DNA of 63,995 nucleotides, filler included, from Stramenopiles sp. TOSAG23-6 (GCA_900128565.1; 5 parts of 5 records of this genome joined end to end with filler, not necessarily neighbours in it), one strand, 5' to 3'. Shown: positions 6,126-63,995, counted from the whole stretch's first letter. Program-made: numbers and translations. Notes: generated by a model not told the origin, from the sequence alone.

Positions 6126-9100
6126 TTAATTAACCATCGCAAAAGAATTTGCTGCTGCCCCTTGAAGCCGCACGATAATATTTTCCGCATCATGTATTTT
6201 TTTTAGTTGTAGTTGAATCCTTTCTTTTTTACCCGAAATATTTTTTGTGTCTGACAACAACGAAGCGAAAGACACCTTTTTTGAAAACAAGAAGGAATAT
6301 AAAGAAATTTCGAGATCTTTGTTCAATTTTCCTATTAATTTTAAAAGAATTGCCTTTGGTACAGAATCCTGAATTTTTTTACGAACGATGCCAAAATATG
6401 AATTTAGAACCAACTTAAGTAAACGGCTTTCAATTTCTTCAATTTCCAAAACACTTTTAGGCCTATACGCTATACGTCCGATTGCTGTCTTTTTTGATGC
6501 TGTTGCAGCTTTGTGCATTCGCAATTTTTGTTCTTCAGTACGTCTTTTTTGTTCAGCTCTTTGATGTTCCCGTTTGTTTTTTTCTTGGGCTTCTTTAGCA
6601 ATCTTTTGTTTGAAACGCCTCAAACGTTTCATATCTGTAACAATTTTAAATCGTTCTGCAAAACTTTGTTGTTTTATTCTTATCAATATTTTTTGATCAT
6701 CTTTTGAAGTTTCTGGCAGCCAACCAGCATGTTCACCAATCCAATCATCATCATCTACATAAATAAAATTAATATTAGTATCCGGATCTTTTTCTTCATC
6801 ATCGCCGATAATAACATCACCTGCTACAGGGCCCATTACACCATCATCAAACCTATCATCGTAATCATTCGTTTCTCGCCAACCGACGCCAAATGGGGCT
6901 ACAACTTTATACATTGGTCTCTGCCCCACTAACTCAAAAACATATTTTTTATCCCATTCGCCTGGATTTGATAATTCTATTTTATTTTCTTTTTGTTGTT
7001 TCATTTGAGAACCCCGAAGAAATAATTCAACATCTGGTTTTAAAGAGTTATTTGGAGGATAACTTTGATCTTTCCAATACTTAAATACTTCATCGCTTGT
7101 AATTTGTGCCCAAATGTTATAAAATTTATTACCTTTAAGAAATCCTGTTGATTTTTTTTGCAACTGTCCTTGCCATATAATAGTCGATGAAACTGTAGCA
7201 TTTTGTTCAAAGTTTCGAGGAGGAGGAGGAGGAGGTGCACCACGAGATTTATCTCTCCCATCATTGTCGTCACTCTCATCATCTTCTTCCAGATCTCGAT
7301 CTAACCGTTCCTCTTGTGCTTCAAGCTTGCGTTGGGCTTCAGCAATAACTTGAGCAGATATTTTGGCTATTACAAGTATGGTGAAGAAATATTTCAAAGA
7401 AAAAGAAATGTTAGGTACAAAATTTTCATAGTGAAAAAAATAAAATTAAAAATCATGATAAAAACACACGCGTCCGATTCGATGACGTTGACCAATAAAG
7501 TTAGGGTGTTCATTATTAATACGAACAAGTTCCATACTTATCATTTTATCCACTAATTCATCAGTTGGTGTACGTAAATTTCGAACTAATGAACCAGCCT
7601 CGGAACGAATGACGTCACCGAGCTGTGTATATCGTGTCATTTCAACTGTAGTCACGTGTGATACTAAATGTACAACATTATTTATTACATCGTCAATCAA
7701 CTTTTCACAAAATGGTCTCATTTGTTTAATACCTTTTCTGATAACACGTTCAAAGGCATCTCCAGGGGCGAATAGGCCAGTCCCAACAGTATTACCTAAA
7801 AGTTTTCTCAATTCATCTTTTGAGCATACTTGCATTATATCAATATCATCTAGTTGTTTCACAAATTGCTTAATTCTTAAATGTAGTTTTGCACCTTCTC
7901 GAAGTTTCGATGTGTAGGAATCAGTACCACTTCGTGTAGTCAAATCACTGATATTATCAATATTTCTTGTACAAACTGGTTCTCTGCGAAATTCTTTTAA
8001 TTGTAATTGATTTCGGACACCCATGGAATACGAAGTTAATGTTTTAGTAATGAGTTGAGCACGCTCCCTCGCATTTGAAGGTACGTCAACTAAGCTGTCA
8101 AGTAATGTCGTTTGTCTTTGAACAACTGCACTCACTTGACGTTGAATCTTGGGGAGATGTTGGACAATTGAATTTAACAATAATTGGTTGAGACGTTTTG
8201 CAAGATAAGCACTACCACATTGTGCAGATATAGTACTATACTTGGGATGCGATTTAAAAAAATTGGATTCAGCTCTTTGAGATGTTCTCAAAGTTACCCT
8301 TTCTTGCAAATCAGCTTGAGAGCGATTCACTACACCTATATAACCAAGTTTAAGTGGAATTACACCTTGTCCAGTAAGGGCACCAAATGCATCTGTTCCT
8401 CTATCCATTAAATCGAGTTTAGTAAGAACACCTAATGTCCGTTCTCCTGATGGATCTACTGTATGAGCTAATTGAAGTGCATCCGAAAGTGCAATATCTG
8501 TATTAGCAGCAGTAACAGCAAGTATGATGTATTGTAAACAAATATGTGTTTTTGAGTTTGAAATTCATTAGGTACAAAACTAAAATCTTTGCAAAAAACA
8601 AAATTGAAATTCATCATGATAACTTATATGCAATTCTTTTTCTCAATATAAGACATAATTAATTCACGTATAATTTCTTCAATATTGTCAGGTTGATTGC
8701 CCATAGGAACTCTAGTGATACCTGGAAGATCGATCACTGTTAAATTTAAAACATCTGCCGAGTAAATCTTTAAAAAAATAGGTTTTGCTGATATTGAAGA
8801 GCCCGATGCAATTTTCTCAGTGTCGTCAATAATTTCCTGTGCAATTTCACTAAAAATATCAAATCGACGGTTTGGAAGATGTCGAAATTCTCCGTATTCT
8901 TTAGTCAAGCCACGTGTTTTAACCAATGTAAGAACTAGCGGACGCCGCGTACAACAACCATTACTATCATGAGTGTGGTATATCAAGCATTTATACAATA
9001 ACTAAAATTACTGAAATTGAAAAAAGACTAAAAAAAATACTATAAAATTTGTTATACTGATGTGAAAAATATTTGTTTTTTTAGTAAAAATTTGTTAGGT

Positions 9101-10878
9101 ACAACATTTCGTATGAAACAAAAATGTTAAAAAAAACATACCTACGAGGTAAAAATCCACGACCAACAAGTGTTGTGAAGAAATATGTTTTCGGTTTGAA
9201 ATTTGTTAGGTATGATATTTCATACGAAAAAAAAAAATCGAAATGAAAATGAAGATTTTTTTTTTCGGTAAAAAAAAAAAAAAAATTCGTTAGGTACAAA
9301 ATTTCGTACTAAAAAAAAAAAAAATTCGAAATTGGTAAAAAACGGACAACAAACAAATGCTTCTAATACCGAAGATTTTCCTGCACTCTGACCTCCAACA
9401 ACAGCTATGGCGGGGAGATCCATTTCAAAATCATTGTTTGCTTCACTGACGGACGACATGGCATCTTGAAGAGTATTTATGAGTTCAACAATATCGGACA
9501 TATCATTTAAATTAAGCCCTTTGGCATTATCCACAGCACTCAAAATTTTACCAGTACCTACATTGTGAAAAAATATTTTAAAAAAAGTCGTTAGGTACGA
9601 AATTTCGTACGAAAAAAAAAATTAAATTCGAAATTGAAAAAAAATAAACGTACCTTCGTCAAAATGTCTTTGGAGAATTTTCGTACTTGCTTTACGAGCC
9701 AGGCTACGACCGACACTTGCATTTAGAGGAGCTTTTATGCGTGATTCATTGTTTTGAATTTGAGATTGGCGTTTTTGTTGTTGGAGACGTTTTAGACGGG
9801 AATTTTCAATTTCGGACTCTTTTGCTCTTGTTGTCATTCTTTCTAATTCTTTTGTTAGTCTAGCAATTTCGATCCTTTGCTCTGATGAATCCTGGGACGA
9901 AATTGTGGGCACAGATGATGCATTGATTCTTTCATTACGCTCTCTTTCCATTCTTTCTTTTCTTTTGCGATCACGCTCCGCTCGTTTTCTTTCCCTCTCT
10001 CGTTGCTTATCAGACTTACCATTTCCAAGGTCTTGTTGGATCGATATATCACGCACCACTGCGCGACTATCCAATTGTTTTTGTTTCTCATCTAATCGTC
10101 TACGTTCTTCTGCTTCTCGNTCTATTCTTTGTTTCTCATCTAANTGNCTTCGTTGTTCTTCCATTCGCTTCTGCCTCTCGTCAAATTGTCTACGTTCTTC
10201 TTCCAATCGTTTTTGTTTCTCGCGAAACTGTCTACGCTCTTCTGCTTCTCGTTCCACTTTTCGTTTCTCCTCTAATCGACGTGCTTCGGATTTTCGTTCA
10301 GCTTCATCGGCAAGTGCTTTCTGTTCTTCTAATCGTTTGCTCCGCCTAGCTTGATCAAGAAGTCGCTGCATATCTTCATCACGAAGCATTTTAGATCGTC
10401 GATCGCGGCGTTTCCTCTCTTCTTCTAGTTCTGACATCTCGGCTGCTTTTTTCTCAGCCAACTTTTTTTGCAACTTTGCTTTTTTTGCAGCCTTTCTTGC
10501 AGCAAGGCGTTCTAAAACGGCTGCTTGACGGAAAGCTTTGTTTTCTTCTTCTGAAGCATCTCTTGATGAAATGGATGCCTTTTTGCGTATTGGAGGTGAG
10601 GATGAAATTGCAGTGGACGGAACTAGTCGTAAGTTCTTCGATTTATAATGTCTTTCTCCAGCGATACCCCAGTCAACGAGCCACTTGTCCAATGAATCAT
10701 TCCATGATATTATCGTACCGGTAAGACCTGACTTGGAACCAGCGATTGCTTCAACGGAATCTCCAGGCTTCCAATCACTTTGAGTCGGTGGCATTGAAGG
10801 AAGCAATCTAAATCTTAGACAATTTGTAAGAATTGAAAAATTTAAGAATTGGATTATATTACAAATTTACAATGTCAT
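6126..10878 (-). CDS. Dynamin-family GTPase with N-terminal coiled-coil extension, GTPase, middle, PH and GED domains (7 exons)
   Basis: Exons 10878-10871, 10807-9654, 9557-9355, 9167-9142, 8963-8628, 8526-7470, 7373-6126 join in frame. Motifs [79 protein letters not shown]. Confidence 0.9.
7374..7469 (-). other. Family intron, GT..TT (96 nt)
   Basis: CGC|GTGTGT...TTGTACCTAAC...CACCATACTT|GTA; joins IGR-VIAKI in frame. Confidence 0.75.
8527..8627 (-). other. Family intron, AT..AT (101 nt)
   Basis: TGC AT|ATAAGT...GTACCTAAT...ACAATACAT|C ATA; restores dynamin [11 protein letters not shown]. Confidence 0.85.
8964..9141 (-). other. Composite intron, GT..AG (178 nt): family element (9057-9141) plus unrelated 3' part
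   Basis: CGT AG|GTATGT...GTACCTAAC...CACATCAG...GATAG|T AAT GGT; restores [13 protein letters not shown]. Confidence 0.8.
9168..9354 (-). other. Family intron, GT..TT (187 nt, two internal cores)
   Basis: GCA TTT|GTTTGT...CACAACACTT|GTT GGT; restores [15 protein letters not shown]. Confidence 0.85.
9558..9653 (-). other. Family intron, GT..AG (96 nt)
   Basis: GAA G|GTACGT...GTACGAAATTTCGTACCTAAC...CACAATGTAG|GT ACT; in frame. Confidence 0.85.
10808..10870 (-). other. Putative ordinary GT-AG intron (63 nt), not of the family
   Basis: ATG ACA TT|GTAAAT...CTAAGATTTAG|A TTG gives an in-frame ATG start. Confidence 0.5.
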
Positions 10879-11109
10879 AATCTTTTTCTCTCTCTTTGAT
10901 TTTTGATTTCCGAATTGATTTTTTTTGATTGCGGATTGATGATTTTGAACTTGAAGTTGAGAGTTCAAATACAGGTTTGTTCCCATTTGGGATGAAAAGT
11001 TTTTTTTGCTGTCAAATGAAATTTTCCATCGAATGTATTCTTTTCTGTGCGCACTGCTCAAAAGATATAAACACGATCAATTCAAACACTCCAACTTATT
11101 TATCATCCA

Positions 11110-12090
11110 ATGGCAATGCTAAGGAAACACCTTTTTGTTCTTTTGAATATAATTCGTGTCTTTGAAAGCACATCTATGGGAAATTTTCCTTTAAAAACCG
11201 AAGAAGGTATTCTATTTGATCCAGTTTTTGCTCAACCAACAAACGAACGAGAAAGGAAAGCAATAGCACTCGTAAAATCCAATGCATTAAAAAATGGGCA
11301 TTTGGCCCTTGAAATATTTAATCAAGAGTCAGAAATATGGGGTAATAATGGTGCATATACTAATATCGGTCACACATTTTTGATTTTGTTTAAGGAACTT
11401 TCAAAAGTAGAAAGCCTTGAATTACTTCAACAAGTTCAAATTTTGGAACAAGCAAAAGAAGCTTATGAGGAGTCCTTCAAAATATTTGCCTCAGAAGCGG
11501 CTCGAAGAGACATACAGAATGCAGCTAACCATTTTTTTTATTTCTTACACCCACACACCCGACGTCACTTAACTCTTAAAAGAATACCTGGAAAAGACAA
11601 TTATGTAAACAGACAANCAGGTTACTGGTTGCATAGGATACCCCCTTCAACACCGCTAATTTGTTTACTTCAACCTAACCACCTATCACACTGGCTTAAA
11701 AAATTTAACGGACGCCCACAGNCGCCGCCTGGTTTTGAGAATCATGAGGCTGGTGAAATGCCTGATTTTGGTAATGAACATCGTTTTGATCAAATAGAAG
11801 TTCTTTCTTTGGTGCTCAGAGAAGAAGAAATCGACGGACCGACATTTGACATTTTAATTGTACATTTTTATTTAAAAAAAAATATCTAAAATTGTACGAA
11901 AATTTGTACCTAACGACATTCAAATTTGACATATTCTTTCACAATATTTGGTTCCGATGGCTCAAATCTCAAAGAGTTGGGCATCGAGGACGATGAACTT
12001 CGTCATGATATTTCAGAAAGTTGGCTTCAAGAGTTGAAAAGATTTTATGAAATGAATGATGTATATGACACACAAAAAAAAAGGTGCTGA
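11110..12090 (+). CDS. Protein with helical (TPR-like) region and C-terminal SAM domain (2 exons)
   Basis: Splicing 11860-11949 gives the SAM-like LREEEIDGPTFDILI-GSDGSNLKELGIED; stop TGA 12088-12090. Confidence 0.65.
11860..11949 (+). other. Family intron, GT..TT (90 nt)
   Basis: ATT|GTACAT...GTACCTAAC...CACAATATTT|GGT; completes the SAM domain. Confidence 0.8.
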
Positions 12091-12239
12091 AAATAAAGTT
12101 GTAACATAGTAAAATAAAAAAGATATATTATGTATTATATATTTTTGTACATGGGACAAATTTATAGTACGAATAAATCTACAAGCCCTCTTATATCCTT
12201 CTAAAAATAACAAAACGATAAATAAAATTGACATTTTCA

Positions 12240-13253
12240 TTACACAGTCATNGTCGANTCAACATATCGACAAAGCATTTCGTTCAGAGGACCCACGGGT
12301 AGAGAGCCTGCCATTCCATAAATAGGCGCGTTACCCGAGGCTCCTTCTTCCCAATCTTTAATAGTTAAAGGCTTCGCTTCGCCCTCTTTAATTAAAGCAT
12401 TAAAGCAATTCCGTAAATCNGACTCAAATTTCTGAATCACACCATCNTCAGTATGTAGCATTGTGATACATAAATGAACAGATGCAGGTGATTGTAAATT
12501 GTTAAGACTCCAACCTAGTTTACTCATTTTATCAGAAAGAACAAAAACATTTACTTTTACACCACTACGTTCATCAACGACGGAACCAAACGATATCACC
12601 ATAGCTACTGGATTTCCGAGAACTTCAAGACCTGAAATGGAATCAATAGTTTTCTTTACTTCAGCTGCAGCTTCCATAATTTTCTCAGTTGCTCTCATAT
12701 ATCCTTCCTCACCCATACGAACCATAGCGGCCCATGTAGATGCCAAGAGTGCTCCCGGGCGAGATCCTGCAATTGTAGCAGTGGCATAGAGACCACCTGT
12801 CCATTTTGGATATGTAAAGTATTGATAGCGACGCATAGATTCATTTCGATATAATACAACTGATGTTCCTTTGCAGCTATAACCATATTTATGAGTATCC
12901 ACTGACATAGCAGTTACACCAGGTAAACTGAAGTCGAAATCTGGAATAGAACATCCAAGTTTTTTTGCAAATGGAAGGATAAAGTACTGTGAAAAATATA
13001 TTTTTTTTTACGAAAATTTTTTTGTTAGGTACGGAATTTCACACAAAAAAATTCATGGTACAAAAAATTCAATTGTAAAAACTTACAATCCCCCTAAGCA
13101 ACAATCTACATGGAGGCCAACATTATATTTGACTGCAAGACTGGAAAGTTTATCTATAGGATCTATAGTACCTTGAGCAAAGCTTGGTGCGGAACCAACT
13201 AACATAATAGTATTCGATGTAATAAAACTTTCTACATCTGATCCACGAAGTTT
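12240..13253 (-). CDS. SGPL1: Sphingosine-1-phosphate lyase (PLP-dependent), 5'-truncated by gap
   Basis: [59 protein letters not shown]. Confidence 0.92.
12982..13086 (-). other. Family intron, GT..TT (105 nt)
   Basis: GGA TT|GTAAGT...CACAGTACTT|T ATC; restores [13 protein letters not shown]; the CAG 5 nt upstream is out of frame. Confidence 0.9.
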
Positions 13254-13307
13254 ATGTATTTTGGAAAAATATTTCAAAAAAAATCTAAAAAATTTTGTTA
13301 GGTACAA
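13254..13307 (-). other. Family intron 3' half (..AT), truncated by gap
   Basis: TTGTACCTAAC...TTTCCAAAATACAT|AAA CTT. Confidence 0.8.
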
Positions 13308-13407
13308 NNNNNNNNNNNNNNNNNNNNNNNNNNNNNNNNNNNNNNNNNNNNTTAATTAATTAANNNNNNNNNNNNNNNNNNNNNNNNNNNNNNNNNNNNN
13401 NNNNNNN
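13308..13407. other. Artificial contig linker / assembly gap
   Basis: 100 nt: N-run, TTAATTAATTAA (stops in all frames), N-run. Confidence 0.97.
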
Positions 13408-13408
13408 C

Positions 13409-16400
13409 CTTGGAATTAAATCTGATTTAACAATACAAAATACGTCACCTCTTCATATGATTCGATGGCATCGTGTAATTGTGGATGAATCACATGCAAT
13501 TAAAAATGTCGGTAATAAAATGTCCGAGGCATGTTGTAAATTAGAAAGTGATCGTCGTTGGTGTGTAACTGGTACTCCTTTCAATACTTCAACGAGTGAC
13601 CTTGTAGGACAATTAAAGTTTTTAAAAGTACATGGATTGGATGATCATCGTTTATGGGAACAAAGAGTTGAAAAGCCATGGGCGTCTTATAAATCTCGTG
13701 CTTCTCATAATGGTGGTATTGTCCCTCCTGGAGCCTTACTTTCTGTTTTAAAAAATACAATGGTACGACATGAAATGAAGCAAAAGTGGGGCCTGAAAAA
13801 TGTTCGGCAATTATTAACACTTCCACCAAAAATTGAAAGTTGTCGTGTGATTGAATGGGATGCGAATACTTTAGAGAAATATACTTCTTTACAAAAAGAT
13901 GCATTTACAAAATTCAAAAAAATTAGAGATCAAGGTCCAAATGAAATTTCACGAAATACTTTTAAATTGTTGACTTTACTTCGATTGTTGAGACAATATT
14001 GTAGTTCAGGTAGTCTTGCACCACCAACAGCATCTTCGACATCATCGGCAACACCTGTAACTAATGCAGCTCTTGAAAAACATCGAAGTAAAGAGTTAGT
14101 TTTAGATGAATTAGATAAATGTCCTATTTGTCATGATGATCAGACACTTCCTGCTGCACCAACAACATGCAAGCATTCATTTTGTTATGATTGTATTGCA
14201 GGATTATGTAATTCTTTCGAGGGTAAAGAAATTTCATGTCCGAAATGTCATGTCAAAATGAAAGGAATTAATCATATTCGACCAGTACGACTTACTCCTG
14301 CAGCAGAAAAGAAAATAAAAGATGCTAATGATGCTAAAGTTGCCGCGAACAAACTCAATGTTGAGGATATGCTGAAACTACCAAAGATAAAGGCATTAAT
14401 TGAGGAACTAAAAATATTACGAGCAGCTGACTCTACTTCCAAAGTACTTATATTTAGTCAGTTTAAACATACACTAGAACACCTTAAACTCGCTCTGTCG
14501 GCATCTGGTTTTCAATATAGAACTCTCACCGGAGATATGACTTTGAAAAAACGAGCCAAAGCTCTGTCAGAATTCCAAAATGATCCACCAACAACTGTCT
14601 TCCTGTTGTCTATGAGAGCTGGTGCTGTAGGTATCAATCTAACTCAAGCAAATCATGTTTTTCTAATGGAACCGTGCATGAATCAAGCATTGGAAGATCA
14701 AGCAATAGGTCGTGTTCATCGAATCGGACAAAAACGAAATGTGAAAATTCGAAGATTTGTCATTTCTAAATCAATAGAGTCACGAATTCGTGCAATGGCA
14801 ATTGCCAAAGTTGCAAAAGCCACAAAACATTCAAGTAACAAGTCAAAGAATTCTCCTGAAATTGCCGAGGAAGACATTTGGAGAAGTAAACTCAAAGTTG
14901 GCAATCACGTAGATGCTCAAGAAAAAGGCGGGAAATGGTTGGAAGGTCGAGTCGTCAGTATAGTGGACAATAAATGCAAGATTCGTTTCCGAGGTTGGAA
15001 AGTGGGTGAAAATAAAGATACTTATGATGAAACCTTTGATCTTTCTAAACATATCGATTGTGATAAAATACAAAAAAAATATACCGTTGTCAAAAATTGG
15101 CGTAAATATATGAAGAATGGTGACTATGTAGAGTGTTATGACTCGGAGGATAAAAAATGGTATTGTCGAAGATTACGTAGTAGTCCATGTATGTTTAATT
15201 TTTTTTCAAATTTAATTTTTTTTTCGTACTAAATTTTGTACCTAACAATTTTTTAGATTTTTTTTGAAATATTTTTCCAAAATACATCAGATAACTCTGT
15301 TTATCTTTTTCTTGGAGGTAAAAATGGTGCTTCGTATGGTCGTATAACTTCTTCATGCGATTCCGATAGTATCCAACGTTTGGGTGTTAATCTTGATTTA
15401 GAAGAAGTAGAAGAAGGTAGGTTGAAGAATATTGCAGAAAGATTTATGGAAAAGGTAGAAAGAATGACAGACCGCGAAGCTTCAGCTAGAAGAAAATCTT
15501 CAGCGAGTCGTTTGTCTGTTGGATCAAAGTTTGCTGGTAGTGTTGTTTCAGATAAGCAAATGTTACGCCAAGAAGAATTTAATGGGTTATTTGATCCCGA
15601 ATCAAGTTTTACACTACGCAATGTTGTAAGTGCTTCTTCAAAAGATAATATTTCAGTAAAAAAACAGACATTTGTTTCAGTTAAAGAAGCGCCTAAAGAA
15701 TTACCGAAAAACGAAAATGTTCTTCAAAATAATGCTAGTCAAACATTGGAAAACCAAGATACTAAAATGCCAAAGAAAATTAATGTAAGTGGTAAGTTAA
15801 AATCATCTGATAATGAAAATGTAATATTGTGTGAATCATTAACAATTAAGTGTCCGGCGGATCTAAATGAAAATCGTTATTTACGTGTCGTTACATCAAA
15901 TAGTATTGTTATGGTGACTCCTGTGCCAAAGGAAATCAAAGCGGGTGAAACATTTTGTATTGATGGACCACCGGGAAGTAATAAAGATGATATTCATATA
16001 ACTAATTTTGAAATGAAGGAAAAAATGGATATTTGTTTGAATGCAGACCCAGAAATACGAAATATTATAAAAATACCCGTTGCTAATACCGCGAATGATA
16101 ATACTCATACAAAGAAAAGTACTATTATAAAGATACCAGTTGCCAACATCTCATCTAAAAACAAAAGCGAATCTGTACAGGAAAACATCTCATCTAAAAA
16201 CAAAAGCGAATCCGTACAGGAAAACATCTCATCTAAAAACAAAAGCGAATCTGTACAGGAAACATTTTGTGTATGTAAAACGACCAACGGCAATGGTTTC
16301 TTCGTTGGATGTGAAGGCTGTGATGGTTGGTATCATCCAAAGTGTATTGGTCTTAGTGAGGATCAATGCTCAAACTTGAGTGATACGTGGCGTTGTCCTT

Positions 16401-16906
16401 CTTGTCCTCCATACAAACCGAAAACAACGTCAAAGAAACGGCGAAGGACTAGTATTGAAAAAGTTGTGACGGACAAAAAACAAAAGAAAAATCTCAATAC
16501 TAAAACAAATGTTGATAATAATAATATTAAAGAGAATAAGTCTATTCTAAGTAATAAACAACCAAAAAGTCAAATTAAACAAAACGATAATGCCAATAGA
16601 AGAAAACGACGAAACAGNTTCGATATAGCTGGTATTTTTAGTAGTATGACATCACCGACGAAGAAAACAAAACTTGACTTGAAAACACAAAATGTTCATG
16701 GAACACCAACTGCAGAAATGGAACTAATTCGAAATAGATCTTGGACTAAAGGTGAAGAAATTTGGTGTTTGTTCAATGGAAAAAGGTATGCTGCTGTTGT
16801 ACTAAATGTGGCACGTGCCGCTCTAGTAATACGATACAAATCAGATAGGGCGAAGGAAAAGATTCGGTGGAGCCAAGTTGGTACTCGAGTTACAAAGAAG
16901 AAATAA
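13409..16906 (+). CDS. SNF2-family helicase, Rad5/HLTF/SHPRH-like (RING inserted), with C-terminal Tudor-like and PHD domains; 5'-truncated
   Basis: SPLHMIRWHRVIVDESH, WCVTGTP, RING CPIC..CKHSFCYDC..CPKC, LIFSQF, GINLTQA, QAIGRVHRIGQ; PHD FCVCK..CEGCDGWYHPKC..WRCPSC; exons joined by intron 15189-15287. Confidence 0.9.
15189..15287 (+). other. Family intron, GT..AT (99 nt)
   Basis: CCA T|GTATGT...CCAAAATACAT|CA GAT; in frame with the 15380 ORF (a CAG 3 nt downstream is also in frame). Confidence 0.8.
16144..16263 (+). repeat. Coding minisatellite, 39 bp x3 (NISSKNKSESVQE)
   Basis: Near-identical tandem units just before the PHD finger. Confidence 0.9.
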
Positions 16907-17042
16907 TCTATTTATACTTTTTTATTTTTATTGGTATTTAATAATTATGTTGAATGTACATATTATCTTTAGAATAGATATAATAAATATATATTTTATT
17001 TTGTACCTTGCAAACTTGCAAACTATTGCATTTTGTATCTAC

Positions 17043-18086
17043 TTATTTTTTGTATTTACCTGACGGACTTCGAGACTTCGATCTGTTACTATTCGTACTC
17101 CGTTTACTAGATGGTTTACTTTCTCCACGCCTACTATTTGTCATTGGTTTGCCATATCGGCGACCACCATCAACCTTTCCTCTTCCCATTCGTTTTCTCA
17201 TTCTATTTTGAGTTTTTTCATAACGCAATCTTATTTTTGTAGCTCGCTTCCTCCCAGAGTGCCCCCGAACAATTGATTGGATACTAGTTGCACAACTTGC
17301 TATATATTCCTGTCTTAAAATTTTCTTTTTTTCCTCTCTCTGGATTCGTCTTCTTTTCAGTTCACGTTTTGCTTCATCACGCAAAAACTTTTGCCTTTGA
17401 CAACTTTGGATTATTTTAGCCGCATTAGTGTATCGTATCCGTTTTTCCTTTGCATATTGTCTACCCATTTGACCCCGCCATATTCGTTGCAAAGAGGTTG
17501 CACCATAATTGTCTTTTTCTATCTTTCTACGTTGGTGATACAGTTGTCTTTTCGTAAGATAAATACGCGCCACAACTTGTATTTGACGAGCTGCTTTTTC
17601 GTGCTGGATACGTCGTTTTCTTCGAGCTTCTTTTCTTTGCTTTTCTTTTAAAAGGCGATTTTCATAATTTTCCCTCAGTTTTTCTAAGTGTCTAATTCTT
17701 TCTTGTGCCATATCAGCAGACTTTAGTGCTTTGGCATGCTGACGCCGTAAAGCTTCCATAGATGAATCATGGTAAACATCTGGAAAACCTAAAGTAAATG
17801 CTGATGTTCGACCTCTCCAAGAGGATTCTTGAATTTTCTTTAAAGTTGAGTATCCATTTCGAAGAGAAGGATCATTCATAAGTTGACGGTTTGTAGTTTG
17901 ATACAAAGGGTGATTTATATTACCCGGAAGAGGTGTAGGGTTACCATAAGGTACCGGAGACTGGAAACCGAAGCTTGGAGAATTCAGTGAAGAACTACAA
18001 ACTTCATCACTCTCTGGTCTTCCTGATGATTTTGGGGTTGAGATAGTTAGAGCGCCTGGAATAGCAGGTAAATGGTTCTTTGACAT
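17043..18086 (-). CDS. IQ-motif (calmodulin-binding) coiled-coil protein
   Basis: AARQIQVVARIY, ATSLQRIWRGQMGR, AAKIIQSCQR, ATSIQSIVRGHSGR. Confidence 0.8.
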   Translation of the reverse strand: MSKNHLPAIPGALTISTPKSSGRPESDEVCSSSLNSPSFGFQSPVPYGNPTPLPGNINHPLYQTTNRQLMNDPSLRNGYSTLKKIQESSWRGRTSAFTLGFPDVYHDSSMEALRRQHAKALKSADMAQERIRHLEKLRENYENRLLKEKQRKEARRKRRIQHEKAARQIQVVARIYLTKRQLYHQRRKIEKDNYGATSLQRIWRGQMGRQYAKEKRIRYTNAAKIIQSCQRQKFLRDEAKRELKRRRIQREEKKKILRQEYIASCATSIQSIVRGHSGRKRATKIRLRYEKTQNRMRKRMGRGKVDGGRRYGKPMTNSRRGESKPSSKRSTNSNRSKSRSPSGKYKK

Positions 18087-18353
18087 TATCCTTTCAGATA
18101 ACTATTAAAAAAGATACAGTTAGTATGGTAATCAAAGGAGACCTTCAATGATGTAAGTTGTAACTGTAGCTATTTTTTTTGACCTAAAAGAAGATTTTCC
18201 AGATTTTTCGTGATGTTTTCGTTTTGACTTTGTCTTCTTTTTGGCCATTTTTCTCTCTCTCTCCGAGAAGGTTCTCTGTTGTCGGGTATAAATGTCTGTA
18301 GAAGACTTCAATTTAACAACTGCGGTACATTGCTTTATCTTCTTACAGAAACT

Positions 18354-18966: not shown

Positions 18967-19070
18967 GTGTAATAAACTAGAAAAGAAAAAAATATTCATT
19001 ACTTTTATATATCATCAGAGTTGGGTTTTGTCATCAAGATATTAAAATTATTGATTACTTTTATATATCA

Positions 19071-26806: not shown

Positions 26807-26808
26807 AA

Positions 26809-43176: not shown

Positions 43177-43216
<40 letters not shown>

Positions 43217-43221
43217 TTGTT

Positions 43222-43269
<48 letters not shown>

Positions 43270-51971: not shown

Positions 51972-52937
51972 ATGTTGATTCATTTGTTCACGTATGTCTT
52001 CTTGTTTATATGGTCACAATCACTTGTTTCAGCATACCAAGAATTAACTTCGGATAATTTCAAACCTTTCTTAAAAGAAAATCCCTTTACGTTGGTTGTC
52101 TTCTTCGCTCCTTGGTCTGAATCTTGGGAAAAGTTCGAGGAAGACTTTGAAACCCTTGACGAAGAAATGGCAGAGAGATTTCCAAAAGTTAATTTAGGTC
52201 TTTGCAATATTGATGAACACTTCACTCTTTCTTCTTACAGTGGAAAAAATACCCTATCTGTAAAGTTTTTCTGGGGTGAAGCCTATGATTCAAAACCAGT
52301 ATCTTACCTTGATGTTCTAAATGCTGAAAGCATTTTTGATTTCATAGAAGCCGTTTTGGATTCAACAGTAGAAGTGACTGTTGATGATATGGATGACGTT
52401 GTCGAAGAATTTGTGAAAATTACATTTGGACAGGAATCAAATGACAGAAGTAATAAGCAAATCGAACTGCTCAAACAGGTACAAAAACGAGTCGCCGAAA
52501 CGGATAATGAAACTGAAAAAAAGCTTCATTATTTGTACAAAGTTCACGTTAAAATAATGACAGGTTTAATGCAAAATTCACAAACTCTTGCTGAAAGAAT
52601 TCATTCACTAAACATGGAACTTAATCAATTTGGAGAATTCATGAAAATTCAAGATTACAAAAAAAAGAAAACGGAATCGGTCTTATGTACGTGTTCATCA
52701 TGAATTTCGAATTTATTTTATTTTTCATACGAAATGTTGTACCTAACAAATTTCGAATTTGACATATTTTTTCAAAATACATATCAACAGTATGCTGACA
52801 AACTTCTACCTCCAAAATATCGTTCAAATGCTAAAAATGTCTTATTTCCTGATTCTACACCCAATGAGAGAGGAGCTAAAAAAGCTAATTTTGAAGTTCA
52901 GTCAAATGGTGGAGCGAAACGTATTCTGTTAGAATAA
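51972..52937 (+). CDS. Non-catalytic thioredoxin/PDI-like ER protein with helical C-terminus (2 exons)
   Basis: Signal peptide; ELTSDNF..LVVFFAPWSES (WCxxC lost). Confidence 0.7.
52687..52782 (+). other. Family intron, GT..AT (96 nt)
   Basis: TTA T|GTACGT...TTCAAAATACAT|AT CAA; in frame. Confidence 0.82.
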
Positions 52938-53266: not shown

Positions 53267-53366
53267 NNNNNNNNNNNNNNNNNNNNNNNNNNNNNNNNNN
53301 NNNNNNNNNNTTAATTAATTAANNNNNNNNNNNNNNNNNNNNNNNNNNNNNNNNNNNNNNNNNNNN
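53267..53366. other. Artificial contig linker / assembly gap
   Basis: N-TTAATTAATTAA-N, 100 nt. Confidence 0.97.
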
Positions 53367-53776: not shown

Positions 53777-54962
53777 ATGGAGGCGAATATTTACACATTT
53801 TTAGTGCAATACTATGATGCGTATGCAAAGGCAAATAAGCCATATACTTTAATGTATCATGAAATGAAAAATGGCCAGCCTAACCAGTTGGAGTTGGTCA
53901 ATCCAAAGACGAAACAAAAGTTTATTGCGAAACATAGAACTCCGCATAAGCTTCGTCATTTCATTTTGGGTAATAACGTCACTATAAAAGGGCGAACATT
54001 TAATGTAGAGAGCTATAATGATAAGCAAACCAAACAGGTATTTTCTGTATTGCATGAAAAGACTCTCGTTTGTGTGTCTCCTCAAGCATTCAAAAACCTA
54101 GGTCTCTTATTGGACCTAATCGAAGGATCAGGTTTGTTATTAGGTCAGTTAAAGACTTGTCGTCTGAGTATAGAAACAGTTAAATACTTGATTAATATTG
54201 CTGGATTTGATTCTATTGATGCAGAATGCCTAAGAGGTCCAGGTGTAATGTGTGCTTTTGAAGTCGTTGGAGAGAAAGCGAGACAGATGTGGTTAGAGAT
54301 TAGCGCTCGTGCTGGAGTAGGTCCAATATTTGCCACTTCAAAAACGACTACTGATGCAACAGTCAACTTTTTCTTTGGTAATAATCAGCGGCAAGATATT
54401 GCTCAATCAAGCGCAGAAGTCATGCAACGTGTCAATGACGCTTGTGCTTTGCTTCTTATCAAGCCTCATGCTGTATCTCAGGGATATCACGGGAAAATCA
54501 TTGCTCAGGTGTCAGCTGAAAATTGTTTTGAAATATGCGCTTGCGATAAGGTAATGTTTTCTAAATCTGATGCTAAAGAGTTTTTAGAGTGTTATTCGTT
54601 TTTGCATAATATATCTGAGCATGTAGATCAATTGTCTTCTTCTTCGTGTATTGCATGTATGTTTTATTTTTTTTTTGTATGATTTTTTTTTCATACGAAA
54701 TTTTGTACCTAACAATTTTTTTAAGATTTTTTTTGAAATATTTTTCCAAAATACATTGTGTGTACGTGGAAAAGAAAATGTCCAAGCCCAATTACGTGCC
54801 TTTGCTGGACCATTTGATGTTATCGTTGGTAGAGAAATTAGTCCTCAATCTCTTAGAGCCCAGTTTGGTTATAATAGAGTAAGAAATGCTGTGCATGTGA
54901 CAGATTTAAAAGAAGATGGCGTGTTGGAATGCAATTTTGTATTTAATACTTTGAGGCTTTGA
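53777..54962 (+). CDS. NME7: Nucleoside diphosphate kinase 7 (DM10 + two NDK-like domains) (2 exons)
   Basis: DM10 FLVQYYD..ILGNNVTIKGR; LLIKPHAV; LRAFAGPFD..PQSLRAQFG..RNAVHVTDL.EDGVLE. Confidence 0.88.
54657..54756 (+). other. Family intron, GT..AT (100 nt)
   Basis: GCA T|GTATGT...CCAAAATACAT|TG TGT; restores SCIALCVRG. Confidence 0.9.
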
Positions 54963-55128: not shown

Positions 55129-56782
55129 TTATTCGATTTTATTTAAAATAGATTTTGCATTTTTAATAATTTGTTCAATATTGTTATTCATTACCATTTG
55201 TTTCCTTGATACAATCTTCATTTCCTCTAATAACCCATTACTTAACATTTCCTTGTGGGTTTCTTGATTTTCTAAATATTCTTCTTTACATCCAAATAAC
55301 GCTTTCATTAGATTATTTATAAGTTTTGATGTTGCCGAGACTCTCCCCTCTGGTGTCTTATCATCAGGTTTACATTTTCTTAATACTCTTAATTTATTTA
55401 TCGTATCGTGAAATTTATGATTTATTTCTCTGAGATTTGCCTTTGCTAATACATCACCCTTGCTTGCAAGCTTTGAATATTTACGATATAACCACATTAT
55501 TTGTAAACAATTTGATGCCGTATGACGAAGCTCTCTCTTATAATTTTTTCTCATGACAATATTTATTAGATAGTTTTCACCCTCTGAAGTGTTACTTGCT
55601 TCTACAAAAACGGCAACCATCATTGTACTTATTACTAAACCACCCAAAACACCACCCAGTATAATCGTGATTTTTCCTATGGGAGACACGGCGACAGTAT
55701 TCCCATACCCTACAGTTGGCATCGTTATTAAAACTAAATAAATACCATCATGAAATGATGAAATTTTAGATGTCGGTATTTCTCTCTCGAGAATACACAG
55801 AGCTGCCCCTGTTGCGACAACAATTGTAAATAATAATGGTAGAAGAAGAAGAAGTATTTTGGGAAAATATTTCAAAAACAAAATCGTTAGGTACAAAATT
55901 TCGTACGAAAACCAAAAAAAAAATAAACTCGAATTTGAAAAAAAAATAAAACATACAATCGGGTTATACTTGAGCAACATTTTAAAGTTGAAAGAAATAG
56001 ACAATGAATCAATTGCGTTCATATTTGCAATGAAATGAATTTGCTGTCCATAAAATCCTGAGTGATTTCGCATTACCCTCAACATGGTATAGATTCTAAA
56101 TAGAACAACTATGTTCTGTGAAAAAATATTATTTTTTTTTTTTTTTTAACGTTAGGTACAATTTTTTTTTTCTTAAAAAAATGTAAATTGTACACTCAAT
56201 TTGGAAAACATACATATTAAGCACATTAACATGCATTGGATAACCATTTAAATTTGTATAAAAGTCCATACCTACTGGAATATGTAGTAGTGCAATGAAA
56301 CATTCTAAAATCCAATTTTTGGTTTCGGTAGAGTCAAATTTTGTCAATAATCCTGTATTTCGTGGAAGGATATTTCTCAAGGCTTTGATTCGTATTATTG
56401 TTTTATACCTAAGTGTGTGCAGAATAATAATAATAATGCTATCAATTGATGTTGCCCATTTTAATATTCGTGCTTTGTATGTATCATGATACAACTTTCC
56501 TTGGTGTTTCAACGCCCAGATACGCATTTCATCGTCAAGAAGAAAGCACAAAAGAATAACAAAAATACTCATTAATGCTGTTATATCTTCGTAATGTTTA
56601 CGACTTGTGAAGAGACGGTTTAATTCTCCCAATTCAGCTAAAGAAACAACTGTCTTATTATCGAAACTACATTCTAAAAGTTGTTTTTTATATACGGCAT
56701 ATAGATCATCCTCGTGTTTTTTTCTTTTTCCTGAAATGTCTTTGCTTTTCATTCGTACAGCATTTTTAGCACTTGAATTCAT
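55129..56782 (-). CDS. SK/KCNN-like calcium-activated potassium channel (3 exons)
   Basis: LECFIALLHIP, S4 LFRIYTMLRVM, pore LITMPTVGYG, CaM-binding-like ASNCLQIMWLYRK. Confidence 0.85.
55852..55956 (-). other. Family intron, GT..TT (105 nt, stop-free 3n)
   Basis: CCG ATT|GTATGT...CCCAAAATACTT|CTT. Confidence 0.8.
56111..56213 (-). other. Family intron, GT..AT (103 nt)
   Basis: AAT AT|GTATGT...CACAGAACAT|A GTT; the CAG 5 nt upstream is out of frame. Confidence 0.88.
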
Positions 56783-57114: not shown

Positions 57115-60100
57115 ATGGCGCAATTTCCTGGTGGGGGTCTTTTGACACCAGGACTTTCAGCAAAACTGTATGGACGTCGTACAAGTCAAGAAACACCCAG
57201 ACAGTGTGAACCTCAAGGACGACTAAATTTTGGCAGCACTCCAGACCATAGGAATATGGATACAACGCAAGCATATACTCCTGCAGTACGACAGTATTCA
57301 GCATCAGATAAAATGCATACAGGCAGACGTACATCATTGACTAATGAAAATGCCGGTACAAAATTTTCTTTCACGCCTGCTGTAGATAGAGACGGAAACT
57401 TTGTTACTAATGACGACGACAGCTTTGATCCTCGGTTTGACGCCCCTTCCCTTTTTCCTTCTGATTCACGACCAACAATTCCAGAATCAACTCATCGTGA
57501 ACAAGCAACATTGAATGCGGGTCATTGTGAGTTTGTTTCTCTGGATTTACTTCAAAAATTTCGAGAATCTTTAGACTCTAGTCGTGAGAATAGTGACTTT
57601 GGAAATTTGCTCCACTTATATGAAACACACTGTGACGAAGCTGTTCAGAAATTAGTAGATAATTGTCCTCGGCGTGGTGGAGAATGGGACAGAGAAGAAG
57701 TGCAAAGACAAACTGAATTCTGTTCGCAACTAAAGCTTGAACGTGATACGTGGCAGTTATTAAGGGGGATACATGACCTTCGACAAGAATTAGCCATAGT
57801 CCCACCATATGACCCTACAACAGCAACGTGTGGAACATCAGCAGATGCCATATCTGATGCTTACGCACAGAACCATGTACTCCAATTACTTCATCGTGTA
57901 CGTGATTGGCTTCAATTATGTGCACGACCTCACTTGCCGCTTTGGAAGCAACCACCAACACCTGCACGAAATCTAGGTTCTTGGCCTGGAACATTTCAAA
58001 CACAGAAGGAAAATGCACTCAAGGAAAGTAATCAACAAAAAAACTATGCAAATAGAGGTAATGCTATGCAAAGTTCAGCAAAACAAAACATGAAATCAGT
58101 CTATTCTGGTGTTGATCCTGATATGTGCTTTCGAGGTGGTCAGTTGAGTGCGACAGACCTGTCTACTGAAACAGAGCTTTTATTAAGTATATGGCAATGT
58201 CTTCGCGCAGGTGACTTACAACGAGCTCAACAGGTTTGTCGACAACATAGTCAGTCATGGCGCGCGGCCTCTTTAGATGGTGACTGTCCCTTACATGATA
58301 TTATTGATACAAATCAGATGAATCAAGATGATAATAATTCCGTCAGACCTGCGACGAATGTATCAAGTGGAGGGAGAAGGACACGAAGTGGTAATGCTCA
58401 TAGATGGTTATGGAAAGCCTCATGCTGGGAAATATCTGAAAAACAGTGGAAAGCTGGGAGACATCAGAATAATCATGAATGTAGAATAGAAAATCATCAA
58501 AGAACTTCAGATTCATCAAGTGCATCTGAATTAGAAAGTATTATATATGCTACATTATGTGGCAATATTAATGTACTAATGCAATCTAAATATTGTGCTA
58601 CATGGAATGATCAGTGCTGGGCACTTATTGGATCAATTTTGCAAGTAGCAGAAGATTCAGTTCTACTGTCTCACAGAGAAGACCAATTGTTTAAAAGCCG
58701 ATTTCTCCCTGGTCCATATACTCTAAAATATGCACAATTACAGCAACAACGTACTGCAAATATTAGACAGATGGAAGCTGATATTGGTAAATTATTTAAA
58801 CGTCTCCTAAATAATTCTTCTACTAGTGTAAGTGAAGAAGCGCATTCAATATTTCGTATAGTTCAAGCAAGCGTAATTCTCCGAGTATCAAATATTCTTT
58901 CAGCAGCTCAGAATGAAAACAAAAATGAAAACAAAAATGAAAACAAAAATGAAAACAAAAATAATAATAATAATGATACTGTAATGAGTGATGCCTCCTC
59001 TTGTGACACAAAATTAATCTCTACAAATGAATCTATTTCTTTAGTTGTTGATTTAGTCAATGACGTCATTCGACCTATTCTGGATGATCCCGTTAGAGTT
59101 TCGCCTGTCCATCTTCGATTTGTTGCTCATTTAGTTTTATATCTAAAAACGTTGGATCAAAATAACTCGCAATTTTCGGAAATTTCAAAGGAAAGTAGAT
59201 CTGTTACGTATCATGTATGTGATGATATTATAGAAACGTATATTGAACACTTAGGTGCCGCAGGAAGACTTTGTGATGTGCCATTATATGCCATGTATTT
59301 ACCTACTAAAAGACGGATCAGTGTGTTTGCGTCAATTTTGGAGAGGATTCATGATACAAAAGAGAGAACAGATTGTTTAAATGAAGCTAGAAAATATTTT
59401 CCAGATGATTTGAGTATTGTCACAACATCTGTTGTACAGCAAATTATGTACGTTTTTGTTATTATTTTCAAAATTCAAAATTCTGTACTGTTTTTTGTAC
59501 CTAACAAATTGTAAATATTTTTGAAATATTTTTTTTCCAATGCATGGCAACTCCTCGAATTCCTAAAAATAAGCAAAACAGTCAACGTTTATTATCAACA
59601 ACTCCAGCGAGACATCTCTCACCATTAGGTAAATCATTTAATAATCGTGGTGACAATGCTCAGGATGATACATTTGATATAAACATGAACAAAACTCTGT
59701 ACAATTTGACGAATGAAACGATTGAAAATCATTCTACTGAATTTGATGATGATGATGATGATGGAAATTTCACTACAAATGATATGGAGCGTCTTAATGT
59801 CGTTCGTTGGTTATGTTCGTCATCACAACAACAATATGAAAACATCAGTAAAGATGCCGAAAGAAATGCCGCTGAGATGGAGTTGAATCGAACACAGATT
59901 CAAACTGACGAAGATGCTGCACTATTAGATGAGACGATTCAAACACAGATGCAACAGCAAGAAATCAGATTACGACAAGTATTGAGTCAATGTAAAGAAG
60001 CTGTTTCACAATCTAATAATCTTATGCTTGAATTTGTATCTTCCTGTGATTCAACAGGTTGTTGGGAGAGTAAACTTCCCGCCGCGCGTAAATTACTTAT

Positions 60101-61686: not shown

Positions 61687-63942
61687 CTAAGATTGCGACG
61701 CGGCGAGGGCGGTACGAAACAGCTCTGTACCCTTTCGTGCCAGCATCTTTTTCTCAACTGCATCATCGATTTCTTTTTTGGACGTTTCAAGTTTACTTTT
61801 AATTTGCTTAACTTCAGCTCTTGCTTGACGACCACGTTCAATAGCTTGAAGTTTTGTTGCAGCTTTCTCTCGTCGTTGCATTTCGGCAACTTCCTCTGCT
61901 GCTTTCTGCTCAGCTTTTGCCCATAGTTTCTCAAGCTCCGCATATGGCGACATAGGAGGTGTAGCAGCACGCTGAGCACGCTTAGCAGCAGCAGCAGCAA
62001 TCTTAGCAAAATCAACAGCCTCAGTAGCAGCATTTCGAGCAGCTGTACGATGGGGTAGGTATCCATGCAACCAATCTACAAAATCCATTTTATCTTCCTG
62101 ATACATCAAAGGATTGAATGTTGAATTTTGTACAAATTTCGATTTCGATATTTTTTTGAATGCACCGTTACTCGAATTCTTGTGATTCAGCTGATATTCA
62201 TTTTCTGGTGACATGAGTTGTAGTAGATGCAAAACAGACATTGCCTTTTTGCTTACCATATGTATTTTGGAAAAATATTTCAAAAAAAATCGTTAGGTAC
62301 AAAATTTCGTACGAAAAAAAAATCGAATTTGAAAAAAAATAAAACATACATGATTCACTCCATAAGGTTCAGTAATGGAGTCTAATTTATGAACCCTTTG
62401 ATACACCCTAGTCGCGAAATTTTCAACTTGTGATGCACGATTAACCGGTTGGTCAAAACATAATGCTGTGCTAATTTCACCAACTTCACCTTTGAGATCT
62501 CTTACCAAATTGACAAATTTTGTGCAAAACTTTGGATAATTCACACAATTATAAAACATAATATGCTTTGGAAGTTTTGTAAAAACATCTAACATCCTCT
62601 TAATAAGTGCAAAGCTATCAAAACCCTGTGGTCGATTAACACTAAACACAGATATATCATCTCTTGCTGGTGCTGAGGCTGGTGCTGGTGCTGGAGTGTA
62701 AACCTTTAAATGAGGCACTTCATTCGGGTTGCGACCTAGCTGACAATGACCATCACAATGACCTGTCACAATTAGCCAGTCATGAGCTGAAGGTGTAAAT
62801 TTCTTTTTGATATGATCAAATTGATCAATTTGAAGTAACACAACTTCACGACCTTGTTTTTCTAATTGTTTTTTAAAATATACAGATGTCCTTCCTTCAT
62901 TTGTATTAGTTAGAGTCAAGATAAATACTCTCTGTCCAGTTTTTCGATGAACTTTATTATCAATTTTACGTGTAACACGATTACCGGAAATAGGCTGTGA
63001 ATTGTGTAAATTGTTGTCTACATCAGCAATGCGTTGTTCAATATCGATGATGAGCTTTTTGTTCTCAGAGTCGATCTGGGCTTTTTGGCTGACAAAGTCG
63101 AGCGGAGCAATGTTTTGTTTTATCTCGAAGTCGAGCCGAGCAATGATGTCTTTTAGACCTAGTTGTCGCGTAATGTCGGCAGAATCAGTTTTTTCTAACT
63201 GTTCTTTCCAACTAGCCTTCTCAGCTCTGAGTGATTGTATCTTTCGAAAAGCACTTTCGTCTACACGCTCGTCGTCATCTTCATCATTAAAATACTCGCT
63301 TTCAAGTACTTCACTTGCAGACAACCGATGTTCGTCCTCTGGTGTGACCATTTTCATGAGTAAATCAATGAATTGTGACTGCTGCTTCTGCGACATTCCA
63401 GGAAAGCGAATTGACTGAATAATAAACCACATTTTTTCCATTACAGAATTCAGATGGATATTTTCTCCCTTCTCTTCCGCTCCTGCTTTTGGTGTTGCAG
63501 CTTTTTCCTTACCTTCAGCACTCTGAATAGCAGCATTCTCTCGTCGCATTTGTTGAACTCTTGCTTGACGACCACGTTCAGCAGCCTGAATAGTTGTAGC
63601 AGCATTCTCTCGTTGCATTTGTTCAACTTTATCTCTTGCTTGACGACCACGTTCAGCAGTCTGAATAGCAGCATTCTCTCGTCGCATTTGTTGAACTCTT
63701 GCTTGACGACCACGTTCAGCAGTCTGAATAATTATAGCAGCATTCTTTCGTCGCATTTGTTGAACTTTATCTCTTGCTTGACGACCACGTTCAGCAGCCT
63801 GAATAGTTGTAGCAGCATTCTTTCGTCGCACTTGACGACCACGTTCAGCAGCCTGAATAGTTGTAGCAGCAATGTATTTCTCCAACTCCTTTGCTTTCTT
63901 CGACTCATTTGCTTCACGATCAAGGAAAACATAAAAAGGTTC
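61687..63942 (-). CDS. IQ-repeat protein, 5'-truncated (at least 3 exons)
   Basis: Tandem AATTIQAAERGRQAR IQ motifs at about 63500-63870 and one in the last exon. Confidence 0.75.
62260..62349 (-). other. Family intron, GT..AT (90 nt, near-consensus copy)
   Basis: AAT CAT|GTATGT...TTTCGTACGAAATTTTGTACCTAAC...CCAAAATACAT|ATG. Confidence 0.85.
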
Positions 63943-63995
63943 AGGTATTATGAAAAAATATTTCAAAAAAAAAAAACTCAAATTTGTTAGGTACA
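63943..63995 (-). other. Family intron 3' half (..CT), truncated by window end
   Basis: TGTACCTAAC...GAAATATTTTTTCATAATACCT|GAA. Confidence 0.7.

Follow-up and report, generated by a model that had tools for sequence, protein, structure and literature searches.

Can an intron be removed to the exact base when its 3' end carries no AG, while its 5' splice site and branch site look like those of any textbook intron? The question is posed by a window of 63,995 bases (the whole stretch of DNA analysed here) from Stramenopiles sp. TOSAG23-6, and by the family of short, related introns scattered through it. The window consists of five stretches of about 13.3 kb each, separate contigs of one fragmented assembly that have been joined by spacers. 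We count 35 members of the family in it: 30 complete introns, 4 copies truncated at contig or window ends, and 1 intergenic fragment. A preliminary description of this DNA had given the same number of complete copies and a total of 34. All 30 complete copies lie in the sense orientation of their host open reading frame (ORF) and join long ORFs in frame, 16 on the minus strand and 14 on the plus strand, and they are spread over at least 14 genes at unrelated intron positions. Read from their conserved start, 28 of the 30 end in something other than AG.

The core of the element is the 9-mer GTACCTAAC, which occurs exactly 24 times in the window against 0.21 expected from 100 shuffles, none of which reached 24. 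The 33 core matches align as one single element, and a diverged copy (31103-31212) was added after the core alignment. Complete copies are 90-110 nucleotides (nt) long in 28 of 30 cases, the other two measuring 178 nt and 187 nt; the 27 simple copies have a median pairwise identity of 0.68 (maximum 0.96) and are 20% GC. The element opens with GTAtGTTTT, continues through an AT-rich stretch with palindromic AATTTCGAAATT-like pieces and a T run to cgTAcgAAATTTTGTACCTAAC, and closes with TgAAATATTTTTTCAcAATACAT. Its start is a yeast-like 5' splice site, GTAYGT. The conserved box GTACCTAAC adjoins a small hairpin and may be read as the branch site, its branch-like A lying 32-44 nt from the intron end in the 27 simple copies scored. 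After the box come a U-rich stretch, the conserved terminus ...CA(C/A)AATAC, and then two more bases, mostly AT and usually the same as the last two of the upstream exon. A generic scan of the window for other in-frame introns returned one more family copy and otherwise noise; the family is the only intron class found in the 64-kb window, in keeping with the suggestion that it is the dominant one.

We tallied termini in the family register, that is, reading each of the 30 complete copies from its conserved GTAYGT start. The 5' ends are GT in 28 copies, AT in one and TT in one, and 20 of the 29 copies scored have GTATGT or GTACGT as their donor hexamer. At the 3' end, AT stands in 22 copies, TT in 5, AG in 2 and AA in 1, the final three bases being CAT (18), CTT (4), TAT (3), TAG (2), TTT (1), GAT (1) and CAA (1). 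The preliminary description had the same numbers of TT and AG and one AT more; the difference lies in 30187-30288, which reads AA. Measured against U2-type GT-AG introns, the family has the 5' GT with its extended consensus and lacks the 3' AG, which is found in 2 of 30 copies in any register. AGs nearby go unused: five copies bypass one 2-7 nt upstream of their non-AG junction, and for 12982-13086, where homology fixes the junction, the bypass is confirmed. Downstream, 47099-47194 has in-frame AGs at +6 and +9 past the junction. Two copies had been credited with an in-frame AG 3 nt downstream, of which we find only one, 15189-15287.

How precisely are these sequences removed? Excision is base-exact, up to the sliding discussed below, for 11 of the 30 introns, ten by homology and one by RNA contigs. 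Alignment to homologues or solved structures covers all five family introns of a double AAA ATPase gene, three in a dynamin gene, and one each in the genes for lipoyl synthase (LIAS) and sphingosine-1-phosphate lyase (SPL). The spliced AAA protein contains no stop and is gap-free across its five junctions against 16 of the 120 homologues fetched, including the junctions between VQWD and DVGGL and between LLI and VGATNRP. In LIAS, the first exon stops at residue 237 of the human LIAS chains 8ugo/8tsk and the second starts at 238, between HN and VETV. In SPL, the exons are placed at residues 280 and 282 of 5eud/3mad, and a single split codon (281) separates them, at the LGGF to ILPF junction. 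Dynamin aligns to chain 2aka_B up to residue 46, continues through an 8-residue mini-exon plus two codons, and resumes at residue 57; further on, its exons lie at residues 164 and 166, again with one split codon between. The same residue count indicates that the composite intron at 9168-9354, in which a first copy lacks its 3' end and a second lacks its 5' end, is excised as one unit. The two AAA junctions named above and those of LIAS and SPL had been proposed beforehand and hold up against homologues, and two others that had been proposed, between GDI and FIAD in an NHL gene and between FLKN and GVD in a SPRY gene, follow directly from the sequence.

Independent contigs point the same way. 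The contig evidence consists of aligned pieces among those listed; the junction listing is dominated by cross-matches between family copies, and parts without RNA cover carry no information. Two poly(A) metatranscriptome contigs, X10 record 15 and X8 record 30 (X8 and X10 being two samples of one study), join 52684 to 52781 and skip 96 nt, with flanks of 123 and 82 nt in the former and 117 and 270 nt in the latter. This junction is the leftmost placement of the predicted excision of 52687-52782. It supports the preliminary description, in which introns with a GTAYGT donor and a CTAAC box are removed precisely at a non-AG end. For the LIAS intron, the second piece of X8 record 28 begins at 50828, and among the pieces listed the start of an X8 contig lies near 50655, which fits splicing of that intron. 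At the DNA level, records 7 and 4 of X1, an independent DNA metagenome, cover the 3' ends at 50828-50829 and 47683-47684, respectively, and their listed differences all lie elsewhere. Assembly error at the intron ends, raised in the preliminary description as a way in which its reading could fail, is unlikely.

Where each copy is cut is a finer question. In 22 of 30 copies the upstream exon and the intron finish on the same two nucleotides, where permutation gives a mean of 13.6; none of 100000 permutations reached 22. Six of the 8 copies with a non-AT intron end still match their exon end (TT/TT four times, AG/AG twice), so the border repeat is more than shared AT-richness. Of the 30 upstream exons, 17 end in AT, compared with a dinucleotide background of 0.099. 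The base before the repeated two is a C that belongs to the element, so the repeat is 2 nt long and the element proper runs from GTAT... to ...ATAC. Judged from these borders, the repeat looks like the signature of a 2-bp target-site duplication with a preference for AT, as an introner would leave.

Because of this repeat each junction can slide by 2-3 nt, and the messenger RNA (mRNA) does not fix the cut sites: in an AT/AT copy, GT..AT, TG..CA and AT..AC yield identical mRNA. Sliding preserves length, so the reading frame is no help either. Across all mRNA-preserving registers, GT-AG is possible in 2 copies, AT-AC in 14 and neither in 14. Eight copies have differing border dinucleotides, and in most of these the registers differ by a synonymous or unconstrained codon. 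The telling case is 41351-41445, where GT..AT (or TG..CA) keeps the Leu of DEL-EAL after Walker B, a position held by I or L in 16 of 16 homologues, and the AT..AC register would put His. In addition, 6 of the 8 mismatched copies have AT at the intron end and another dinucleotide at the exon end, as expected if the intron side is selected as a splice signal. GT..AT is most likely the general cut register. A uniform AT-AC register was considered and rejected, as only 14 of 30 copies can be read that way and 41351-41445 contradicts it.

We consider it probable, though by no means secure, that the family is a non-autonomous, transposon-like introner family that is removed by the spliceosome by means of a canonical 5' site and branch box, with its 3' junction set by position. 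The yeast-type 5' site, the CTAAC box and the tolerance of copies in the sense orientation only all fit spliceosomal removal. A junction that falls two bases past ...ATAC while nearby AGs are ignored suggests a site set by position or context, not by AG. In the proposed mechanism a spliceosome, most likely the major U2-type, would cut before the G of GTAYGT and ligate two bases past ...ATAC, whichever bases those happen to be (AU more often than UU, and UU more often than AG or AA). The AGs 2-7 nt upstream in five copies would simply be skipped, and loss of the element together with one copy of the duplication would restore the original reading frame. Whether the spliceosome of this lineage ligates after U(-1), with the consensus YAU, tolerance of UU and AA, and a position-chosen site that disregards upstream AGs in something like thousands of copies, we judge to be evenly balanced. 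Ligation at U(-1) had been proposed from the outset; 41351-41445 and the 14 copies that fit neither classical pair speak for it, and the 14 copies that can equally be read as AT-AC leave that part of the proposal an inference. Pairing of the intron ends could act as a ruler for the 3' junction but was set aside on weak evidence, the ends showing no covariation and the folds of 6 copies lying close to those of shuffled controls.

Several observations weigh against this explanation. Rfam, at its gathering threshold, gave 0 matches within the window, to small nuclear RNAs (snRNAs) or anything else. Searches of contig collections found no transposase, autonomous element, relative or empty allele, and the inverted repeat at the termini, GTAT/ATAC, is short at about 8 bp with a bulge. 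GT..AT cannot be told from AT..AC or TG..CA by mRNA in 22 of 30 copies, and the choice of register rests on one conserved residue in one copy. One copy, 8527-8627, has no GT in any register yet is exactly excised, and becomes AT-AC if slid by 2, a point in favour of the AT..AC register at least for that copy; another, 47099-47194, has TT at the family donor position. The RNA evidence comes from assembled contigs and concerns two introns only, and a non-poly(A) RNA contig, X7 record 23 (50362-50871), retains the LIAS intron; it derives either from precursor RNA before splicing or from DNA that entered the library. Within those searches, a 22-nt family stretch had 0 matches in viral contigs and 0 in metagenome contigs. 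LIAS exon 1 hit 80 loci in metagenome contigs with a best-segment identity of at most 71% and no close relative, so no empty site is available.

The nearest competitor accepts the same introner family and places the real cuts 2 nt upstream, making these AT..AC introns with GTAYGT at +3 to +8 and the AT 3' end an artefact of register. Sliding by 2 does make the 14 copies mentioned above AT-AC, rescues the GT-less 8527-8627, and agrees with the aligner, which placed the RNA junction at 52685-52780, that is, as AT..AC; moreover, G-G and A-C terminal pairs are described as isosteric (PMC13326754). We nevertheless think it unlikely. No register turns another 14 copies into GT-AG or AT-AC (a TT/TT copy would become TT-AC), the His at 41351-41445 would stand where all 16 homologues have I or L, 6 of the 8 mismatched copies keep AT on the intron side, as expected of the splice signal, and the 5' motif would be out of register with its usual pairing to U1 and U6. 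A minor (U12-type) or derived second spliceosome, tolerant of GT-AT and AT-AN termini, is a more doubtful candidate still. The GTAT start and the CCTAAC box loosely resemble U12 motifs. The GT..AT ends, and the AT..AT of 8527-8627, belong to the set that U12-type splicing tolerates: non-canonical U12-type introns include GT-AT and AT-AT, and AT-AN and GT-AT are reported to be splicing-competent (PMC1557818). Against this, the ATCC core of the U12-type 5' site occurs in 0 of 30 copies, whose hexamers are GTATGT, GTACGT and similar, and the family has a U-rich tract. The branch site of a U12-type intron is about 10-26 nt away from the 3' end, a range that the box of this family, at 32-44 nt, exceeds.

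Non-spliceosomal excision in the style of euglenid and hemistasiid nonconventional introns, guided by end pairing and short direct repeats, has only a slim chance of being correct. Such repeats and end pairing are described for those introns (PMC12621601; PMC6221363), and the family does have direct repeats at its borders and complementary GTAT/ATAC ends, which pair as a 4-bp end helix when 3 of 6 copies are folded to minimum energy. The folds themselves are unremarkable, however, with z-scores from -3.2 to +0.7 in the 6 copies and only one of the six unmatched by its 200 shuffles; no compensatory change is seen, as copies with a GTAC start still have ATAC ends; and the conserved 5' splice-site motif and CTAAC box are features that nonconventional introns lack. 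The GU..AY termini also resemble those of group II introns. A group II ribozyme was rejected, the element, at about 100 nt, being too short. Finally, it is scarcely credible that the whole pattern is an artefact of misassembled intron ends, of inserts that stay in the mRNA or of genes that are dead. The assembly is indeed fragmented and contains Ns, its contigs break inside copies (four contig ends within family copies imply that the repeat itself breaks the assembly), and X7 record 23 keeps the LIAS intron. But non-AG ends are common to 28 independent copies, two 3' ends are matched by independent DNA contigs, ten junctions restore conserved proteins residue for residue, and the intron at 52687-52782 is missing from two RNA contigs. 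Retention in RNA, which the preliminary description named as fatal to its reading, is seen in one contig, for the LIAS intron, and the artefact explanation is largely refuted.

The introner family favoured here, with its position-set 3' junction, has relatives in kind among known systems. Introners of Micromonas, Aureococcus and dinoflagellates (10.1101/2020.10.14.339549; PMC12130899) are likewise described as many similar short copies that sit in unrelated genes and are removed as introns, are bordered by a target-site duplication, one copy of which leaves together with the element so that the frame is restored, and supply at least one splice signal themselves. As described there, they use G(T/C/A)..AG with one canonical site recruited from the duplication, in contrast to the non-AG 3' junction of 28 of 30 copies here. 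In curated introner surveys, a 3' end that is neither AG nor AC is regarded as suspect (PMC12130899). The marine protist Amoebophrya (PMC7789003) also has repeated introns with inverted repeats at their ends, direct repeats at their borders and ambiguous borders. According to that account its introns have no terminal consensus, inverted repeats that form hairpins of 8-20 nt and direct repeats of 3-5 nt, and no U1 component was found; the window, by contrast, has a single dominant family, whose members share a conserved 5' site and the CTAAC box, carry a repeat of 2 nt and fold weakly.

In the tunicate Fritillaria borealis, 95% of introns escape GT/AG (PMC13326754). There, too, a majority class departs from GT/AG; a link with introner transposons that have weak sites is proposed, and processing is by the U2-type spliceosome. 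Both intron ends are diverse, and recognition is tied to duplicated, divergent U2AF subunits and to changes in N6-methyladenosine (m6A) of snRNA (PMC13326754), whereas in the window's family only the 3' end deviates. The nonconventional introns of euglenids and hemistasiid diplonemids (PMC12621601; PMC6221363) share non-canonical borders, short direct repeats and pairable ends with the family, and differ, as described, in having no 5' site complementary to U1 and in pairing extensively, where the window's family has a conserved GT start and no significant structure. The same dinucleotides occur in the rare GT-AT and AT-AT introns of animals (PMC1557818), among them one U2-type GT-AT intron conserved between human and mouse and a handful of U12-type ones. 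Those are single exceptions, with 7 GT-AT and 12 AT-AT among the U12-type introns of four species (PMC1557818), whereas here a whole family is concerned. Read in this way, the family, with its non-AG 3' junction, is a variant of known non-canonical introner systems, and new in this form. The suggestion that such a majority class had not been described therefore holds for this form and not more widely, large non-GT/AG classes being on record (PMC7789003; PMC13326754; PMC12621601).

How numerous is the family beyond the window? Summed contig depth in an independent DNA metagenome is about 5-7 on unique sequence and 10,000-22,000 on bins that hold copies, which suggests thousands of family copies, though other organisms may contribute. 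DNA-metagenome depth at 41470-41906, 47588-48024 and 52395-52831 is 3,000-22,000, and RNA runs pile up at these places too. Family sequence is abundant in RNA libraries as well. Copies can also be dense within a gene, five each standing within 1.3-2.3 kb in the dynamin and AAA genes. All members are listed in Table 1; each complete copy is based on an in-frame join of same-strand ORFs together with the family register, and any further basis is named in its row or in the text above.

Table 1. Members of the intron family, and contig spacers, in the window (ends in the family register; lengths in nt)
Feature	Position	Strand	Ends	Length	Remarks
Dynamin intron	7374-7469	-	GT..TT	96	Exon end GC, no repeat; joins ORFs of 365 and 415 codons
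Dynamin intron	8527-8627	-	AT..AT	101	ATAAGT at donor position; AT..AC if slid by 2
Dynamin long family-derived intron	8964-9141	-	GT..AG	178	Residue count 46 to 57 of 2aka_B
Composite intron, two cores (9297, 9213)	9168-9354	-	GT..TT	187	Upstream exon ends at residue 46 of 2aka_B
Family intron	9558-9653	-	GT..AG	96	Exon end AG = intron end AG
Family intron	11860-11949	+	GT..TT	90	TT/TT repeat
Sphingosine-1-phosphate lyase (SPL) intron	12982-13086	-	GT..TT	105	AG 5 nt upstream of junction unused
3' part of copy, cut by contig end	13254-13307	-			Ends ...ATACAT
SNF2/RING-PHD region intron	15189-15287	+	GT..AT	99	In-frame AG 3 nt downstream possible
ATG22-like gene intron	20854-20944	-	GT..AT	91	Exon end CT
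Family intron	24449-24547	-	GT..AT	99	AGs 5 and 2 nt upstream unused by frame
Family intron	28981-29073	+	GT..AT	93	
SPRY gene intron	30024-30122	+	GT..AT	99	Exon end GT
Family intron	30187-30288	+	GT..AA	102	No repeat; frame and family alignment only
Diverged family intron (between FLKN and GVD)	31103-31212	+	GT..AT	110	AG 7 nt upstream unused by frame
Family intron	32008-32103	+	GT..AT	96	Exon end CA, no repeat
Family intron (between GDI and FIAD)	32526-32633	+	GT..AT	108	
3' part of copy, cut by contig end	39978-40058	-			
AAA ATPase intron (between LLI and VGATNRP)	41139-41234	-	GT..AT	96	Gap-free against 16 homologues
AAA intron after Walker B (between DEL and EAL)	41351-41445	-	GT..AT	95	Exon end TT
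AAA intron	41568-41657	-	GT..AT	90	
AAA intron (between VQWD and DVGGL)	41842-41932	-	GT..AT	91	
AAA intron	42362-42459	-	GT..AT	98	
MFS gene intron	47099-47194	+	TT..AT	96	5' boundary uncertain, GT 2 or 4 nt upstream also in frame
MFS gene intron	47591-47684	+	GT..AT	94	X1 record 4 (DNA) agrees at 3' end
Lipoyl synthase intron (between HN and VETV)	50721-50829	+	GT..AT	109	
Degenerate intergenic fragment	51780-51830	-			Core only, no ends
Family intron	52687-52782	+	GT..AT	96	Missing from two poly(A) RNA contigs
3' part of copy at contig start	53367-53402	+			
NDK7-like gene intron	54657-54756	+	GT..AT	100	
Ion-channel gene intron	55852-55956	-	GT..TT	105	TT/TT repeat
Ion-channel gene intron	56111-56213	-	GT..AT	103	AG 5 nt upstream unused by frame
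Nup107-like gene intron	59448-59545	+	GT..AT	98	
Family intron	62260-62349	-	GT..AT	90	
3' part of copy, cut by window end	63943-63995	-			Family terminus ...ATACCT
Spacers	13308-13407, 26707-26806, 40059-40158, 53267-53366				44 N + 12-nt all-frame stop linker + 44 N

The window is 29-42% GC, in keeping with a compact, AT-rich genome, and its long ORFs switch strand repeatedly with very short spacing between them. Pfam and a protein atlas identify genes for a DNA ligase, a dynamin, an SNF2/RING helicase, a PHD protein, an ATG22-like and an MFS transporter, a SPRY protein, the double AAA ATPase, an NDK7-like protein, an ion channel, a Nup107 homologue and LIAS, the last named by the atlas with no useful taxon. 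A marine diplonemid was considered as the source and dropped in view of the closely spaced, strand-switching genes and of the label of a public gene model. The organism is probably a MAST-3-type marine stramenopile, a lineage hint that we take from the label of one public gene model: P0001, whose source label contains 'MAST3', is 99% identical over the last AAA exon. LIAS exon 2, compared with longer proteins, has its best named matches in diatoms at about 70% identity, which fits a stramenopile, and the runs that contain the window stretch are seawater metagenomes and metatranscriptomes. Telomere-type CCCTAA hexamers occur in 2-3 units at 3994-4011, 24013-24024, 2640-2651 and 47370-47381, two of them intergenic and two within ORFs. 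A trinucleotide microsatellite lies in the N-terminal exon of the AAA gene (43071-43329), and tandem coding repeats are found at 34187-34591 (45 nt), 26403-26690 (72 nt) and 63511-63888 (69 nt), the last encoding IQ-like repeats on the minus strand.

Has this intron class been noticed before? P0001, compared with 40766-44463 on the minus strand, keeps 41139-41234 as in-frame protein and reads into 41842-41932, with no DVGGL; this mis-splicing implies that the class was not recognised when the model was built. A near-identical full-length LIAS model was not found among longer proteins (exon 2 as query, at most 72% identity). In the literature searched, no paper combined introners with MAST-3, and nothing relevant stood among the matches listed for non-canonical introns in stramenopile metatranscriptomics. 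The main text of a paper on single-cell MAST genomes contains no 'splic-' word and no 'non-canonical', and that of a paper on a cultured MAST-3 genome contains no word beginning with 'intron'.

These results bear on annotation as much as on splicing. Gene prediction that insists on GT-AG gets the host genes wrong. Public proteomes of this lineage probably contain damage at every place where a family copy lies, and systematic damage is likely in the proteomes of such uncultured marine flagellates. Surveys for introners that build on annotated introns and mistrust unusual termini (PMC12130899) would miss such families. With a transposon that makes introns while neither bringing nor recruiting an AG, more kinds of sequence can become introns. 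Since only one of three splice signals deviates, the family also offers a cleaner natural test of 3' splice-site choice than lineages in which every splice signal has dissolved. If the spliceosome of this lineage does ligate after U(-1), it would provide a natural, genome-scale case of an AG-independent second splicing step operating beside a textbook 5' site and branch site.

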